DNA of 22,583 nt from Candidatus Aenigmatarchaeota archaeon (GCA_043799675.1 JAZDNN010000008.1:1-22583); one strand, 5' to 3'; positions 1-6,000 are shown, counted from the first letter of the stretch. Numbers: made by a program.

Positions 1-3000
1 TCATGATTTCTACGTATCGGAGAACGGTCAGCGCGAAAGAAGGTGGCACGTCGCCCCCGATAAGAGATGGCTGAAAGTGAAGAGAGGGAAAAACAGGTTC
101 TTTTCTTATGATGTTGAAAAGACGCTCTTTTCCTCGGGGCAGATAAACATATATCCGGTCAACTGGCTGCGCGGCAGCCTGGATAGCAGGATAATGAACC
201 CGTCGATGTTCATGCACTGTGACGAGGTGAGCATGCTCTGGACGCCCTACGTATGTGGCAACTGCATGTCGCATGACATGGAATATACATTGAAGAAAAG
301 CAAGCCGTTCAGGCTGCTAATCGAAAAGACAAAGGAACCCATACAAACGGATTACATGCCCGCCTCCGAAGAGACGCCGAGCAAACCGTCTCCTGAGCAG
401 ACATGCTTATAATAGTTCCGCTTCCAATTCTGTTTGCCGAGGTCGCATAGAGGAATTGCGATAGCCTGGAACTATTGCCGTTTGCAATCAAAGCGAGCGG
501 GAATATGACCGGCGAGCTATTGCTCCGCAAGGGGCTCGAGAGTTCGAATAAGCGCGAAGCGCCTAAAGGCGTTTTGGCAGCCTGCGGCTGCAATGCTATG
601 AGAGTCTCTCCCTCGGCGCCATTTGATTTCGAAGAAATCATGGCGACGACTAGCGAACCTCAGTTCGCGTTGGTCGGCGCCAATCAGTATAAATTCTTTC
701 CGTTACGATTTGTTTCATGTCAAAGCCAGACGCGCACGAGATGAGCCTGATGACACGGAGGTCGATACAGACGGTCGTCGACTACTGGATACCAAGCGAC
801 GACAAGATTGCCAAAATCAGGCTACTCAATAGGGCCGTACACGGATTCATAAACGCATATGACGGACACGTCAGGAGGGTCTGGCCAAAGAACCTTCCGT
901 CGGAGGATGCAGACAAATGCTATTACCTTTACGAGGTCGCGCCGCAAAGGGCGATACCGAAGACCGCACCTGACAGCAGGCACAGGTGGGACTTTGCATA
1001 CGAAGTGGTCGCCTACTACAAAGGTGACGGTAACGGCAACTTCGTCCTCGAAAGCGTCGGTGAGGAGCATACTTTTGATATCGCGGGTGTCCCGAAGAAA
1101 ATAAGCGGTCACTCATGCAAGGACACGGTATACAACATAGGATTCAAGAGCATACAGACTGCGTGCTTCCATGATTTTGAAGTGACGTCGTTCTCGCCTC
1201 CTGAGCTGAACCAGATTGCCATGGCAGCCGGGGCACCGTTGAAATTCAGCGGCAACTATGAAATCAGGGACGGTCTGGTCGAGCTATACAATGAACTTTA
1301 CAAGCACAAGCTGAAGTCATGGCAGCGACTCAACCTGCTTTACGCAGAGTACTACGGAAAACTTGCTGATTGGAAGAAGGGGCGAAATTTCCGCAAGAGT
1401 GTCGATAAGTACCTTGACCCGATATTATTTCACCGGGATGACAGGCTTAGCTGAACTCGAGGAGACTTGAATTCCTGCCGCCGACGGTCGCGGAGAGGTT
1501 GCTTTTCATCGACATGTTGCCGTTCCTGAGTTCGATTGCGGCAATGTACCTGCCGAGGCTGCCTTCATTGAAGCTCCTGCCGGCGGCGGTCTCCGGCCCG
1601 AACAACGCATCAAGATACCTTTCCGCATCGACGTCATCCTTCCGTATTTTTTCCATCCGTTCGAATTTCCTGCCCTTTGAATAATAGTAACGGGTCTCTT
1701 CGCCGACCTTGAGGTTCAGCGCCTCGATGACCTTGACGCGTTCGGAACCCTGCGACCTCTCGGAGTAGACCGGTCTGTGGCGCTTTATTTTTATGCCGAG
1801 CGATTCCAGCGGCACGTTCATGTCCGATATCTTCTTGGAAAGGTCTATGACATATGCCAGGGCATCCTCCTTCTTTCCGGAAAAGACCTTGTCGATGTAA
1901 TCCGTCAGGGCCTGCCTCGCGAGCTCGCAGTTCAGCCCGTGGCGGCCCATCACGTCCATTCCCGACGTTATCAGCGATATGTCGACCCGGGCCACGGCCT
2001 CGCCCCTGCCGGCCGAGATGACGTCCGAGGAGAAGGCGAAAGGCAGGAAGTACGGGCAATCCTCGAGCCATTCGAGCGAACCGTCGCCCTCCAGGAAAAG
2101 GAAGCGGTTGGAAAAGTTCAGCAGCCTGAAGCCGTTCTGGTTGATGGTTGCAAGGCTCTCGCGGACCGATCTTGACAGCTTGCGATAGGTGTCCTCCGGG
2201 TTCTCCCCGTAGGAACCGACATACCAGTTGTTTGCCCTTTTCACCACGTTCTCAACCAGCTCGTCATTCACCCTTTCCTTCTCGAGCTTGACCAGGTCCG
2301 GGTGGTATTCCTCCGGGTACCTGCAGCATAGCAGGTCGAACAGCGGCTCCTCGCACATCGAGTCCAGGGCCTCGGCATATATCGCGGCCTCTTTCGCCGG
2401 GCTGCTCCGCATCAGCCTCACGAGATCATTCGTTTCCATGTCCCTGATCCTCGGAAGGGAATTCAGGGCGAACAGCGGGTAAACCAGAAGGACGTCATGA
2501 TGGAGACCGTTCTTCTCGCCTATCCGCTCGAAAGAGGAGCGGTCCAGACCGGCGCATCTTTCCATCAGTCCCATCTTCTCGTCCTTGAACTCGAATTCAC
2601 CCAGAGTGAAGCGTCTGTCGAACCTGTACGTGTTCAGGGTATGGAAGTAATCGTACGCCCATCGGCTTGACGCATTTGCGGATTGCGCCACCGAGCAGAT
2701 TGAGGTCAGGTCTGTCTTCATGGCGCGCGCTGTCGGTAGTCCTATCTCCTTCACCTTCATGGCAAGCTTGAACAGCCGCTCGGTGTCCTCGATGTTGTAT
2801 ATTGCGGCCCTTCTCAGGCTCTCCGGGTCGCGCTTCTGCATCAGTTCCTCCAGCTCGCCGTAACTGAGGTCCTTCTTGAACGGGTCCTCCGGAAAAAAAT
2901 AGTTGTAAACGTCCGGCAGCTTGTCCCGCGGGAGAGGCAGCCAGGCGCGCGAGAAAGCGCAGGTATCGAACCAGCTCTTTCCCGGCATCCGCACTATCTT

Positions 3001-6000
3001 CAGGAAACCGTCCTTCTCCCATGACTTTATCCTTGGCTGGGTCCCGTCGATTGACGGAGTGAAGGGCCTGTCGGATTTCTTCAATTTTACATGGTCCCTG
3101 AGCCGGCTCGCATCGTAAGGGATGTGATGGGCGGCGGCAAAAGGGGCGCTTAGGAGCAGTTCTCCGGTCTTTTCACTTATTCCGTGCTGATCCTTGACAA
3201 CATCCACACTGCAGCAATCAAATCCGCCGGGATTGGCATCCTGGACCACGATGAAGTCGGTAGTCTTTTTCCTGGCATCCCCTTTGACTACGGTGGACAT
3301 CGGGATGTTGATGTAGTTCTTGGTTCCGAGCTTCTCCATCTCGATGTCAAAGCAGGCGAGGTCCCCGTCGCACTCCTCCCGGGTGGAATAACGGACATAC
3401 CTCAGGCCGCCGTCGAAGGGCTCAACAATCGAATAAGTGGGAAACCTCAGTTTGAGGGACTGGTCGGAACCGACCAGGTTTCTGAAGTTGTTCGGGTCGA
3501 TGCGCTTGATCTTGTTACCGAGCCCTCTCTGACCCCAGACTTGGACCACGTAAGCGTTCCCGGAAGGGTGCTTCGTCGCGTCTATGCCGTAATTCTTCAG
3601 AAGCGAGGCGACCCGTGATGCCTGATCGGAGCCCATCCGCCTGCTCGAATAAAGGTGGTCTATCCGGACCTCAATAGGAGCTTCGGCTCTCATGTAAGCG
3701 ACCACGGAACGGCCGTGACGGCTATCAACGACCCGCAGGCCGTCGAGCAGGGCAGCCATGCAAACAAACGAATGCCACACGGATTTAAGGTTGTTTTTGG
3801 TATTCGGGACATGCCGTATGTGAGGAACAAGATTTCCTGGGGCAGCGAGCGGCTGTTCTACGTCCTGGAGCCGCTGATGCCGGCGGATTTCACGCCAGTG
3901 CGGGGGAGTTACAAGGAAGGGATCATGCCGGAAATATTTTCCAGAGTCAAGATTGAATCCAGGAACCCGCGCAAGACCGGACGCGTGGAGATGTATCGCA
4001 TCTACCACGAGAAACTCAAACCGAGGATACCGGAGCTGAAGGAGAGGAGGAACCGGCTGATAACCGGCCTGAGCGTCGATTACAGCGAGCCCAGCGAGAC
4101 GTTCGGCATAAAGTACCCGTCAAAGTTCGGAATGGACTGGATGACGGGCATGGGAAGGTTTTACGAGGAACTGCTGGAAGGAGTGAACGATCTTGTGGAA
4201 AAGCAGGAGTTCAGGTACGGAAAAAAGCCGGAGGGTTACAAGAATGAAGTATTGCATCCGGTGTCACCCGTCCTGTTCCCGTTCAGGTTCATCAAAAAGA
4301 ACAGGGGAATAGGGATGGAGCATCCATTGAAGGACGTGATTCAGGAAACGGACGGCATCCTCAGGGAGAAAGGGAAGCTCACGTTCGGCGACACGGAACG
4401 GATGCTGGGTCAGTGCGGTCCGGCCACAGGAAGCTTCGAGTTCAGCGGCAAGCTTTTTTCTCCGAAGGCCGCCAAGCGGTCAAGGACAGGGTACTCGGGT
4501 CCCGATGAGCTTGACATCGGATTCATCAACAGGAGCATCCCGTTCCTGTCCGACTTCGCAAGAGAGGAGGTGAAGAAAAGGCTCGGGCTCGGATACGAGG
4601 AAAACAAAACGGCGATACAGAAACTGGTCGCGGACGAGTACGACAGCGTGATAGGCAGGAGCACGTATCTCAACAGGCAGATGCTTGCCTCCGCTTTTGA
4701 GAACAGCGTCCTTAAGCCGCTCGGGGTCAGCAGGATGGATGCGATAGCAATGTCCAGTTCGTACGTGTGGGGTGTCCTGCATTTCATACACGGTATCGAG
4801 TTCGTGAACTGGGGCCTGATGCAGGGGGCGAAGAATGGTTACCTGGCGGAGGCGGACCCGACAGCGATAGGAAGAATAATCGGGGGATTGCATGCAGACT
4901 GGGAACGGATGCGAGCTTGAATTCCTGAAGTGCCCTTTCAGGGGAACGGACAGGTGCAGGCCCGAGGATGAGATACCGGATTGCGTGTACGGTCTGACAA
5001 AGGCACGGGACGAGGACGGGGACCTTTACATAAGCGAGCATACGCTTGAGCTGGTGAAAAGATGGACATACGACAACGGATGCCACATCCACGGAATCGA
5101 GGACTACATCCTGCGGCTCAACAACGTTTTTGATACCATGGTCGAGCATGACGGCAGGGAGACCGAGGGGCTGAAGAAGTTCACCGAAACCTTCAGGTAC
5201 GAGCCGTTCATCGTGCCAAGGAAAAATGAATACCAATCATGCCACCTGCGGGCCAGCGAGTTCTCGGGGGGGAAGTTCGAGAAGGTGACGGACATGAAAA
5301 AGCCTTCCAATGGGAAGTGCGACCTGGCAAGGATATTCACGAAAGTTGACCAGGAAGAACTGGGTTACACGCAATCAGCCTCCGCCGAGACCGGGACAGG
5401 GAACCATGCGTTCACGAACGGGCAGCACAAGGAGGACATGCTGGAGAACTCCAGGCTTAAGCTGACAGGAATGAAACCGGTGGACCGAAGGAAGTACGGC
5501 GAGATTCCGGTCGAACTGATGCTGGAACTCAGCGGAAAGAAATACGTAATTTCAGGCCATCCCGATGCGATACTCCAGTGCGTCAACAGGGAAACCGGAG
5601 ATGCAGAACCCGCGATATTCGACCTGAAGAGCAAGAAGTATTCCATGTACGAGGACTGGGGCACGAAGTTCCAGATGATGATTTACGCGCTTGCGGTCAT
5701 CCAGCAATTGGACATGGACTGCGAGCAGTTCCAGGTGATATCCGCCAAGCGGCCGCGCTATGCCTACCCCGGCAACTACAGGGAGATGGAGCTGCACATA
5801 ACCAGGCTCAGGAGGGATGGTGATGCCATGGACAGGCTGCTGCTGGAAGCGGAACGGACGGCAACGGTGCAAAGGATGATACTGGACGACAGGGCATTCT
5901 ACAGGAAAGTGAAGGACAAGATGCTGGCGGCGAAGAAGTGCGACAGTTGCTTCAGCGGGAAGATAAGCCTCGATGTCGACAGGGCCCTGTTCGGGAACGA

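Follow-up and report, generated by a model that had tools for sequence, protein, structure and literature searches.

What does a 770 aa open reading frame encode when no protein family matches it? The question is raised by g00890, which is found in a 22,583 nt stretch of DNA (the window) from Candidatus Aenigmatarchaeota archaeon. An earlier note on this DNA had reported 0 Pfam families for g00890 and its neighbor g00891, and this remains the case even at E ≤ 10. The host genome is 748 kb (83% complete), and the genomes that carry this type of gene belong to small, dependent DPANN cells. No published description of the g00890 family or of its nuclease unit was found in the literature. The features of the locus are listed in Table 1.

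Table 1. Positions of the features of the g00890 locus, counted from the first nucleotide of the window.
Feature	Position	Strand	Remarks
C-terminal PIP-like tail, NSSLLEFS	1450..1473	-	N in place of the PIP Gln
g00890, PolB-like protein, 770 aa	1447..3759	-	predicted exonuclease-competent and polymerase-dead
Region VII-like, G600-M-D602-VMGRH-G608	1936..1962	-	matched to KGxExVRRD of Pfu PolB
Motif C-equivalent hairpin, LLN548-F-S550-N-R552-FLF	2095..2124	-	without DTD
Motif A remnant, D422-VLLVYP428	2476..2496	-	next to a deletion of 5 residues compared with canonical GLxENIVxLDFRSLYPS
ExoIII, Y321-NIE-D325	2785..2799	-	aligned to canonical Y356/D360 (hhalign)
K296, conserved exonuclease-domain lysine	2872..2874	-	aligned to K332, invariant in canonical PolBs
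ExoII, H211-HIPY-D216	3112..3129	-	aligned to canonical D256 (hhalign)
ExoI, D138-I-E140	3340..3348	-	aligned to canonical D184/E186 (hhalign)
51-nt divergent spacer	3760..3810	.	central ATTTAAGG at 3783-3790; probable shared TATA box of two leaderless genes
g00891 (X), 369 aa from likely start 3811	3811..4920	+	no known family
g00892, Cas4/RecB-like PD-(D/E)XK nuclease, 391 aa	4892..6067	+	predicted; start overlaps the g00891 end by 29 nt

The g00890 open reading frame and its relatives

g00890 is a real open reading frame under purifying selection. It lies on the minus strand, and its boundaries and length were given correctly in the earlier note, as judged by translation and by the starts of homologues; the frame is open upstream to a GTG at position 4008, and the homologues start at M1 (position 3759). 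Codons 433–770, the polymerase-like half, display a dN/dS of 0.135 versus a 94%-identical metagenome copy. An AlphaFold2 model of g00890 that accompanied the earlier note has a pLDDT of 89.2.

An exhaustive HMMER search finds 55 relatives, g00890 itself counted, at E ≤ 0.001; tightening the threshold to 1e-10 leaves 34 and to 1e-30 leaves 10. The first two counts reproduce those obtained before. Pfam DNA_pol_B (PF00136) matches none of 54 relatives, nor g00890 itself at E ≤ 10. DNA_pol_B_exo1 matches 11 of the 54 at E ≤ 0.01, six of which exceed the 23-bit cut-off. One family member matches Pfam RNase_H_2 (PF13482) at 3.7e-7, and NCBI labels some members “3′-5′ exonuclease” or “RNase H-like”.

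The profile similarity of the family to family B DNA polymerases (PolBs) reaches beyond the exonuclease domain. Against PDB sequences, the 55-row profile matches Pfu/KOD PolB at 9.9e-47. The match falls into two segments, profile positions 135–417 (exonuclease and motif A region) and 551–689 (KxY/thumb). Alignment by hhalign with 18 canonical PolBs of its own phylum covers 536 columns, starting in the exonuclease domain and reaching the thumb (probability 99.84, E 2.8e-30). On these alignments g00890 is predicted to be a full-length PolB homologue, in agreement with the original reading.

The gene is present in 5 of 371 Aenigmatarchaeota genomes and in 45 of 401 Nanoarchaeota genomes. Its description as rare is thus appropriate for the first phylum but less so for the second.

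The exonuclease and polymerase sites

Conservation was counted over rows with a residue, in the alignment of the 55 relatives and, independently of it, in a further 20 genes from Nanoarchaeota. The ExoI residues D138 and E140 are each found in 45 of 45 sequences of the alignment, and ExoIII displays Y321 in 50/51 and D325 in 51/51; all four are present in 20/20 of the Nanoarchaeota set. At ExoII, D216 is kept in 47/47 and N212 in 43/47, g00890 having H where the family has N. K296 (50/50, and 19/20 in Nanoarchaeota) is a residue we take to be the equivalent of the “Kx2h” catalytic Lys. The DEDDy-type residues of ExoI, ExoII and ExoIII are thus present in g00890 as they are in 19–20 of the 20 Nanoarchaeota members, and the 3′-5′ exonuclease site is predicted to be intact. 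The claim that these motifs are kept is upheld at 45/45 to 51/51 across the family, apart from the single exception at Y321.

At motif A, the column of D422 contains N in 15, D in 12, P in 7 and E in 4 of 50 sequences. D422 stands five residues before YP in g00890. In the hhalign alignment a gap puts D422 before the strand, and the LDFRS segment with the catalytic Asp is deleted; HMMER (profile versus PDB) instead puts D422 on the catalytic Asp. It is more likely that D422 corresponds to the Asn in canonical “ENIV”, next to a deletion that removed the catalytic Asp. By this gap placement the earlier statement that g00890 still has the motif A Asp is probably a misassignment.

The carboxylates of motif C, YxDTD, are absent from g00890, which has LLNFSNRF. 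The hhalign mapping is N548 to Y585, S550 to D587 and R552 to D589. N548 is found in 51/53 sequences, while column 550 shows S28, A6, G5 and D3, and column 552 shows R22, K11 and D6 (of 53). The mapping of the fingers and motif C is not significant when this region is aligned alone (E 0.17) and rests on colinearity and pattern. An alternative mapping of motif C, to YG-ENPE, is likewise without conserved carboxylates. Motif B, KxxxNSxYG, is not kept (K in 7/35 at the K507 column, N in 4/51 at the N511 column), and KxY is not conserved in the family. With the exception of a single sequence, both carboxylates are kept in no subgroup. The palm of g00890 is therefore predicted to be without its catalytic carboxylates and polymerase-dead. 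The earlier claim that these carboxylates are not kept thus agrees with the D in only 12/50 at motif A and with the S/A/G and R/K columns of motif C. The region VII-like residues D602 (45/52) and G608 (49/53) are highly conserved in the alignment of 55, as are N548 and S582.

It appears quite improbable that g00890 is still a DNA polymerase which uses non-canonical residues, in the manner of PolB2/Dpo2. No conserved acidic residue is found at or beside the motif A or C positions in the 55 + 20 sequences, the Lys and Asn of motif B and the KxY motif have drifted, and 33/53 have R or K where the second Asp of motif C would be. Nevertheless the selection on the polymerase-like half, the conservation of N548, S582, D602 and G608, and the presence in g00890 of D422 and of E557/D559 near the motif C-equivalent hairpin are in its favor. 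There is also a precedent, as PolB2 turned out to be active in spite of the prediction that it is dead, according to PMC8764526 and PMC7544198.

The partner genes, the spacer and the C-terminal tail

No known family was found for g00891 (X) in searches that included Pfam and PADLOC. Of the 371 genomes, the X profile detects the 5 with the PolB-like gene and no others. g00892 matches Pfam PDDEXK_1 (PF12705) at 6.2e-5 (23.5 bits, cut-off 22) and PADLOC Cas4 at 1.2e-4; its score with TIGR00372 cas4, 20 bits, is below the cut-off of 65, and no relative was found among PDB sequences. The nuclease motifs GHPD, D244-L-K246 and Q261-xxx-Y265 are present; 7 homologues and 12 fused partners show no variation at D244, K246, Q261 or Y265. 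C14, C22 and C31 are invariant in the 7 homologues and a C-terminal CxxC is found in most, with a spacing that presumably departs from the Cas4 pattern. These cysteines suggest that g00892 probably carries a metal or Fe-S cluster. Searches with Pfam, PADLOC and further profiles revealed no helicase or ATPase motif in g00890, g00891 or g00892.

In the first set of loci an X-like gene adjoins the PolB-like gene in 8/8 and a Cas4-like gene in 7/8. Strong Cas4-like matches are confined, among the 371 Aenigmatarchaeota genomes searched, to 4 of the 5 with the PolB-like gene. A Cas4-like gene is adjacent in 13/20 Nanoarchaeota loci, divergent from the PolB-like gene in 12 of the 13; in 6 of the 13, X and then Cas4 are colinear in a single protein of 665–765 aa. 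By this comparison the partner nuclease appears to have g00891 as its N-terminal domain, split from g00892 in the host genome; since relatives encode the two as a single fusion, g00891 is part of the unit. The link of g00890 to g00892, at first a suspicion, is now strong by adjacency, co-occurrence and fusion; the co-occurrence and the fusion contradict the description of g00890 as a stand-alone exonuclease. The partner is absent from 7/20 Nanoarchaeota loci, and in 5 of these genomes the Cas4-like profile finds nothing at all, thus the exonuclease can persist alone.

The spacer between g00890 and g00891 has counterparts elsewhere. A central TTTAA-type element is present in spacers of 50–52 nt in 6 loci and of 56 nt in a seventh. 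In P. furiosus a single TATA element directs two transcription start sites 49 bp apart (PMC6640164). By analogy the PolB-like and partner genes would be co-expressed from one short bidirectional promoter.

Of 43 members, 25 carry a Q-type PIP-like motif within their final 12 aa, compared with 39/2459 internal 12-mers (1.6%). About 5–7 of the 20 Nanoarchaeota genes show such a tail by eye. The canonical PolBs of the phylum terminate in KQKxLxxFF and a PCNA gene is present in the host genome. In many members such a tail may serve for PCNA tethering; that of g00890 is PIP-like but has N for the Gln. The partnership with g00891/g00892, the X-Cas4 fusion, the shared spacer with its TATA-like element and the PIP-like tails are new here.

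Such a tail, together with an intact DEDDy site, could also belong to a trans-acting proofreader for a replicative polymerase without its own exonuclease, an option raised earlier, and no PolD DP2 N-domain turned up in the host genome (83% complete). This role is very unlikely, since both canonical PolBs of the host keep ExoI–III intact; nor does the constant Cas4-like partner fit simple proofreading.

The surroundings of the PolB-like gene bear on two further readings. Its neighbors are ribosomal, translation and other housekeeping genes; integrases and defence genes were not found among them, and these are not defence islands. PADLOC gives no match for the PolB-like protein or X, the family was not found in phage, plasmid and viral-contig collections, and a PCNA-type tail is unusual among defence effectors. 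It is thus unlikely that the two nucleases form an anti-virus or anti-plasmid pair that degrades invading or replicating foreign DNA, although the patchy distribution, the varying chromosomal positions, one split copy and the Cas4-like partner itself would suit such a pair. The distribution and the split copy would also agree with an accessory role. DPANN solo-Cas4 genes are tied to defence contexts in PMC5704561. A DNA-degrading pair for nucleotide scavenging would suit a small, dependent genome with two exonuclease-type enzymes together, and a uridine kinase and a DeoC-family aldolase flank one locus. That neighborhood is seen in only 1 of 28 loci, however, neither a signal peptide nor a tie to a transporter was noticed, though no search was aimed at them, and the PIP-like tail and PolB scaffold suggest structured junctions rather than bulk DNA, so that scavenging deserves very little credence.

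Proposed role and comparison with known systems

We lean slightly towards a two-nuclease DNA-end or flap processor tied to replication and repair. Against it stand the patchy distribution, the loci without the partner and the host's canonical PolBs, whose own proofreading sites leave no missing function in evidence. Selection would maintain the fingers, palm and thumb of g00890, probably for use as a scaffold that binds DNA, either a primer-template junction or an end. Many members would be held to PCNA via the tail. Since the scaffold could not extend the 3′ end, this end would be handed to the exonuclease, while the Cas4-like partner would cut the 5′ strand. Together the two may trim or resect ends, flaps or gaps in replication-associated repair. 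The PolB homology, the motif pattern, the co-occurrence and fusion of the partners, the selection on the polymerase-like half and the tail enrichment are observed; we infer that both sides cut DNA, and with which polarity, that they associate physically, that PCNA is bound, and what the unit does in the cell.

A tentative extension, possible though not favored, is that DPANN archaea have an unrecognized end/flap machine in which a clamp-tethered, junction-reading PolB 3′-5′ exonuclease and an X-Cas4 Fe-S nuclease acting on the other strand are permanently coupled and expressed from one bidirectional TATA promoter. If true, the machine would function like AddAB, or like Dna2 in concert with the exonuclease of Pol delta, but lack a helicase. 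Cas4 is homologous to RecB, AddB and Dna2 according to PMC5704561. As in AddAB and in Dna2 with Pol delta, a RecB-family nuclease with N- and C-terminal cysteines bracketing its core would work at ends or flaps alongside another nuclease whose polarity is opposite. Unlike these systems, g00890–g00892 show no helicase or ATPase motif, and a DEDDy domain of PolB origin would serve as the second nuclease.

The Thermococcales PolBs (Pfu, KOD, Tgo; PDB 3a2f, 2jgu, 1wn7) are the best profile relatives, at 1e-46. g00890 shares with them the colinear order from exonuclease domain to thumb, the Lys and the residues of ExoI/II/III, a region VII-like stretch and a tail resembling the clamp-binding type. 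It differs in the absence of KxxxNSxYG, DTD, KxY and a Pfam DNA_pol_B match, probably also of the DxxSLYPS Asp, and in its pairing with a Cas4-like partner gene.

PolB2/Dpo2, as described in PMC2527604, PMC4104785 and PMC11791011, is similarly a PolB paralogue that has diverged and whose catalytic motifs are altered; it has a patchy distribution and is encoded with conserved partner genes, the products of which probably form a complex. Its operon partners are an inactivated RadA and arCOG07300, whereas those of g00890 are X and the Cas4-like nuclease. PMC7544198 and PMC4104785 state that in PolB2 ExoI lacks conservation and ExoIII is absent. PolB2 thus lost the exonuclease and keeps a working polymerase, the reverse of g00890. 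Assignment of g00890 to archaeal PolB2 does not fit its intact exonuclease motifs and its X/Cas4-like neighbors. The C-terminal half of eukaryotic Pol epsilon lost both active sites, by the same two sources, and like g00890 is a PolB fold kept as a non-polymerizing scaffold (PMC7544198); it is fused to an active polymerase, whereas g00890 is a separate protein with a strictly conserved exonuclease. The decay pattern opposite to that of inactivated PolBs, proposed earlier, is thus seen against both PolB2 and Pol epsilon.

By its sequence g00890 also resembles DnaQ epsilon and the PolB-exo-like exonucleases (Pfam RNase_H_2, PF13482), as a probable DEDD exonuclease without its own polymerase. Unlike these single-domain enzymes, the g00890 family keeps the whole PolB body, i.e. 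the N-terminal domain, palm, fingers and thumb.

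Gene order and boundaries at the g00890 locus

The host genome comprises 748,753 bases in 45 contigs and is 83% complete; the contig of the window (C43) is chromosomal. Close homologues bear names that assign the organism to the Aenigmatarchaeota, a phylum of the DPANN archaea. The ribosomal protein operon (L3, L4, L2, S19 ... SecY, adenylate kinase) occupies the window from position 6413 on, and four genes are found upstream of it, i.e. a 245 amino acid open reading frame, g00890, g00891 and g00892. The g00890 frame is open up to a GTG at position 4008. Homologues align from residue 1–2 and therefore the start is placed at M1 (position 3759), which bears out the 770 aa open reading frame of the earlier note.

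Positions of genes in the window, and occupancy of exonuclease site residues in the g00890 family
Feature	Position	Strand	Remarks
245-aa ORF	717-1454	+	upstream of ribosomal operon
g00890, PolB-like	1447-3759	-	770-aa frame
g00891	ORF 3655-4920, likely start 3811	+	
g00892, Cas4-like nuclease	4892-6067	+	overlaps g00891 by 29 nt
Ribosomal protein S5	16507-17406	+	299 aa
NUDIX hydrolase	17835-18299	+	4.1e-16; between L30 and L15
D138	residue 138		45/45 family rows
E140	residue 140		45/45 family rows
ExoII Asn			43/47 family rows; H in window protein
D216	residue 216		47/47 family rows
K296	residue 296		50/50 family rows
Y321	residue 321		50/51 family rows
D325	residue 325		51/51 family rows

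The 245-aa open reading frame converges on the 3′ end of g00890 with an 8-nt overlap. It displays no match in Pfam, NCBIfam or PADLOC and is not conserved beside the g00890 module in other loci. Within the ribosomal protein operon there is a NUDIX hydrolase gene, and the Pfam domains of ribosomal protein S5 begin only at residue 127; either S5 has a long N-terminal extension or its start is placed too early. The four sequencing runs are all of sediment metagenome DNA, with no RNA run among them.

Exonuclease and polymerase sites of the PolB-like protein

The g00890 sequence displays no Pfam family even at E<=10, in agreement with the earlier note, and phmmer finds no match among PDB sequences. 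Exhaustive HMMER searches give 55, 34 and 10 proteins at E<=1e-3, 1e-10 and 1e-30 respectively (g00890 itself counted), the first two figures reproducing those previously obtained. None of the 54 relatives matches DNA_pol_B; 11 match DNA_pol_B_exo1 at E<=0.01, six of these above the cut-off, and one matches RNase_H_2. A profile of the 55 rows matches Thermococcales PolB among PDB sequences (9.9e-47) in two stretches, one spanning the exonuclease domain and the motif A region, the other at KxY, region VII and the thumb. Alignment of the family by hhalign with 18 canonical PolBs of this phylum gives a probability of 99.84 and an E-value of 2.8e-30; it covers 536 columns and runs from the exonuclease domain as far as the thumb. 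The two alignments establish, at the level of sequence, the homology with PolB that had been claimed, and this extends over nearly the full length of g00890.

Residues 608–722 of g00890 also weakly match open reading frames of about 370 aa at two loci, L008 and L009 (E 7e-6 and 1e-5), in genomes G023 and G040. Both genomes are of the same order as the window genome and are without a full g00890-like gene.

Residues of the exonuclease site are essentially invariant in the aligned family (see table; counts include only rows bearing a residue at that column). Their partners in the 18 canonical PolBs by hhalign are D184/E186, D256, K332 and Y356/D360. Twenty Nanoarchaeota genes that form an independent set keep these residues in 19–20 of 20 at each position. 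Retention of the exonuclease motifs, as first reported, is thus upheld.

The loss of the polymerase carboxylates, also reported before, is upheld in that no clade and only one single sequence keeps both. The assignment of D422 as the motif A Asp is opposed by hhalign and favored by HMMER. In the motif A region the family displays G-l-f-e-N-v-k-v-v-Y-P, whereas the canonical sequence is G-L-W-E-N-I-V-x-L-D-F-R-S-L-Y-P; hhalign places here a 5-residue deletion that removes LDFRS, including the catalytic Asp. Column 422 is D in the window protein and N15, D12, P7 across the family. The hhalign gap placement pairs this column with the canonical Asn, and HMMER picks another placement. The sole hairpin-like motif C candidate is (I/V)-N-(Y/F)-S-x-(R/K)-F-L-F, with N548 present in 51 of 53. 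Columns paired by hhalign with the first and second Asp of DTD show S28, A6, G5, D3 and R22, K11, D6 respectively. A global alignment gives an alternative motif C mapping, likewise without conserved carboxylates, and the fingers and motif C region aligned alone has no significant similarity (E 0.17). Neither the motif B Lys and Asn nor the KxY motif is conserved in the family. A residual, non-canonical polymerase activity of g00890 would therefore be improbable.

Comparison of codons 433–770 with a 94%-identical metagenomic copy gives a dN/dS of 0.135, which rules out a pseudogene or relic. N548, S582, D602 and G608 are highly conserved. Judged by its codons and residues, the polymerase-like half is not decaying.

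In one genome of the phylum, the PolB-like gene is in two parts (locus L041, 7975–10181, G101:C15), one with the exonuclease half (413 aa) and one with the polymerase-like half (322 aa), which are in different frames with a stop/start overlap ATGA. A frameshift, an assembly error or a natural split could each account for it.

Among the known 'inactivated' PolBs, Pol alpha and Pol zeta are without the exonuclease. It is lost as well in PolB2, and Pol epsilon C has lost both sites (PMC7544198 and PMC4104785). In contrast to these four, the g00890 family would be a whole family that keeps only the proofreading site, and so a third outcome in the evolution of the commonest replicase fold. Full-text literature searches gave no description of a PolB group with the exonuclease kept and the polymerase lost, nor of the Cas4-like partner, and the available portions of the PolB surveys PMC7544198, PMC4104785 and PMC12926913 describe no such group or partner. 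The 2020 PolB survey searched with polymerase domains and dropped sequences without one; the family, which escapes Pfam, was therefore probably missed there and probably also in surveys of this type. Table S2 of that survey has no archaeal match to six family words, a weak result as 13 of 75 members carry these words and the table cells end at 500 residues.

Partner genes and their fusion

The earlier note considered g00890 a stand-alone exonuclease, and this is contradicted by its neighbors. In a first set of eight loci (the window, genomes G005, G117, G101 and G292, the Nanoarchaeia MAG locus L051, and metagenome contigs L053 and L055), a g00891-like gene is the divergent neighbor of the PolB-like gene in all eight, and a g00892-like nuclease gene follows it in seven. 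The G005 genes are on two contig ends, and another two contigs did not extend far enough for an assessment. In the phylum, 371 genomes were covered, and full-length matches to the PolB-like profile are present in five (G000, which is the window genome, G005, G101, G117 and G292), and all remaining matches to this profile are canonical PolB exonuclease domains. The g00891 profile is found in exactly those five, apart from one 62-residue match at E 3e-4, and strong g00892 matches are only in four of them. The suspected link between g00890 and g00892 is thus strengthened.

In the Nanoarchaeota, the phylum of L051, the PolB-like gene is present in 45 of 401 sampled genomes at E<=1e-40 (unpublished genome G703 included). 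Twenty of these loci were analyzed, and in 13 a gene adjoining the PolB-like gene displays a Cas4-like domain; 12 of these partners are transcribed divergently from it. Six are single proteins of 665–765 aa whose N-terminal half matches the g00891 profile and whose C-terminal half matches that of g00892, in colinear order. Six others, of 777–862 aa, match only the Cas4-like profile, and in one locus the g00891-like and g00892-like genes are separate. The colinear fusions indicate that g00891 and g00892 together correspond to a single partner protein that is split in the window. No longer, fused form of g00891 emerged from a word-index search; the fusions came from the genome search. Five of the seven partner-less loci are of one clade, and the Cas4-like profile finds nothing in the genomes of these five. 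In three loci of this clade (L101, L105, L106) the PolB-like gene is followed immediately by a RIO1 kinase gene of the same orientation.

The g00892 protein narrowly exceeds the cut-off of PDDEXK_1, and its resemblance to Cas4 is weak. It keeps GHPD, D244-x-K246 and Q261-xxx-Y265 and has three invariant N-terminal cysteines, with a C-terminal CxxC in most homologues. Cas4 proteins degrade ssDNA as 5′-3′ exonucleases and share homology with the nuclease domains of RecB, AddB and Dna2 (PMC5704561). Neither Pfam, PADLOC nor NCBIfam assigns g00891 to a family, it has no relative among PDB sequences, and its ESM Atlas result (0.78) is noise. A duplicated Cas4-like or second nuclease domain in g00891 is ruled out (hhalign E 0.5). 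For one fused partner, the ESM Atlas gives only PDDEXK leads and rows of TM<=0.36 to UvrD/AddB-like proteins, which are weak (model pLDDT 0.46). At L055, positions 2131–3258, the Cas4-like partner is permuted relative to the window protein, with the N-terminal nuclease segments at its C-terminal end.

The divergent start codons of g00890 and g00891 are 51 nt apart in the window, and the spacers are 50, 51, 52, 50, 50 and 56 nt in six other loci from organisms with <30% protein identity. Every spacer displays a central TTTAA-type element. In P. furiosus a single TATA element gives two transcription starts 49 bp apart (PMC6640164). One shared TATA box may thus serve two leaderless transcripts.

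Genome context and possible function

The module may be a replication- or repair-associated two-nuclease processor of ends or flaps on a dead PolB scaffold, and this reading is modestly favored. The fixed pairing with a Cas4/RecB-type nuclease offers a concrete, testable candidate for DNA-end processing in genome-reduced DPANN archaea, and gives a context to three families otherwise annotated as hypothetical. Genes flanking the loci are housekeeping genes: the ribosomal operon, EF-Tu, EF-G, an aminoacyl-tRNA synthetase, RIO kinase, topoisomerase I and, at a single locus, a gene of the AP-endonuclease-2 family. A role in nucleotide scavenging is quite unlikely. Searches of phage, plasmid and viral-contig collections gave no relative, and a mobile-element origin is without support; a role in defence is doubtful, if the least so of the alternatives.

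Forty-three family members extend to the C-terminus, and 25 of them end in a Q-type PIP-like motif; such a motif is present in only 39 of 2459 internal windows of 12 residues. The C-terminal sequence of the phylum's canonical PolBs is KQKxLxxFF, and the window protein ends in NSSLLEFS. The window genome has genes for PCNA and Fen1; neither the PolD DP2 N-domain nor NurA was found in it (83% complete). Replacement of NurA by the module is rejected, as the two are not anticorrelated: 23 of the 45 genomes bearing the PolB-like gene have NurA, as do 105 of the 356 without it, a rough comparison in which related genomes are not independent and unpublished G703, G730 and G614 are included.

Proofreading in trans for another polymerase would be consistent with a kept exonuclease site, but both canonical PolBs of the window genome have intact exonuclease and polymerase motifs, and a simple trans-proofreader is therefore unlikely. 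One of these canonical PolBs is split over two contigs (G000:C33 and C7; loci L004 and L003). The zinc motif at its end is of the CPKCGG type and resembles the Zn domains reported at the C-terminus of aenigmarchaeal B6 PolBs (PMC7544198).

Two single-locus hints of a nucleic-acid processing context are found. In genome G117 a DHH/DHHA1 phosphoesterase gene (L039, 10075–11001) is convergent to the PolB-like gene, and at L051 an AP-endonuclease-2/UvdE-like gene is directly downstream.
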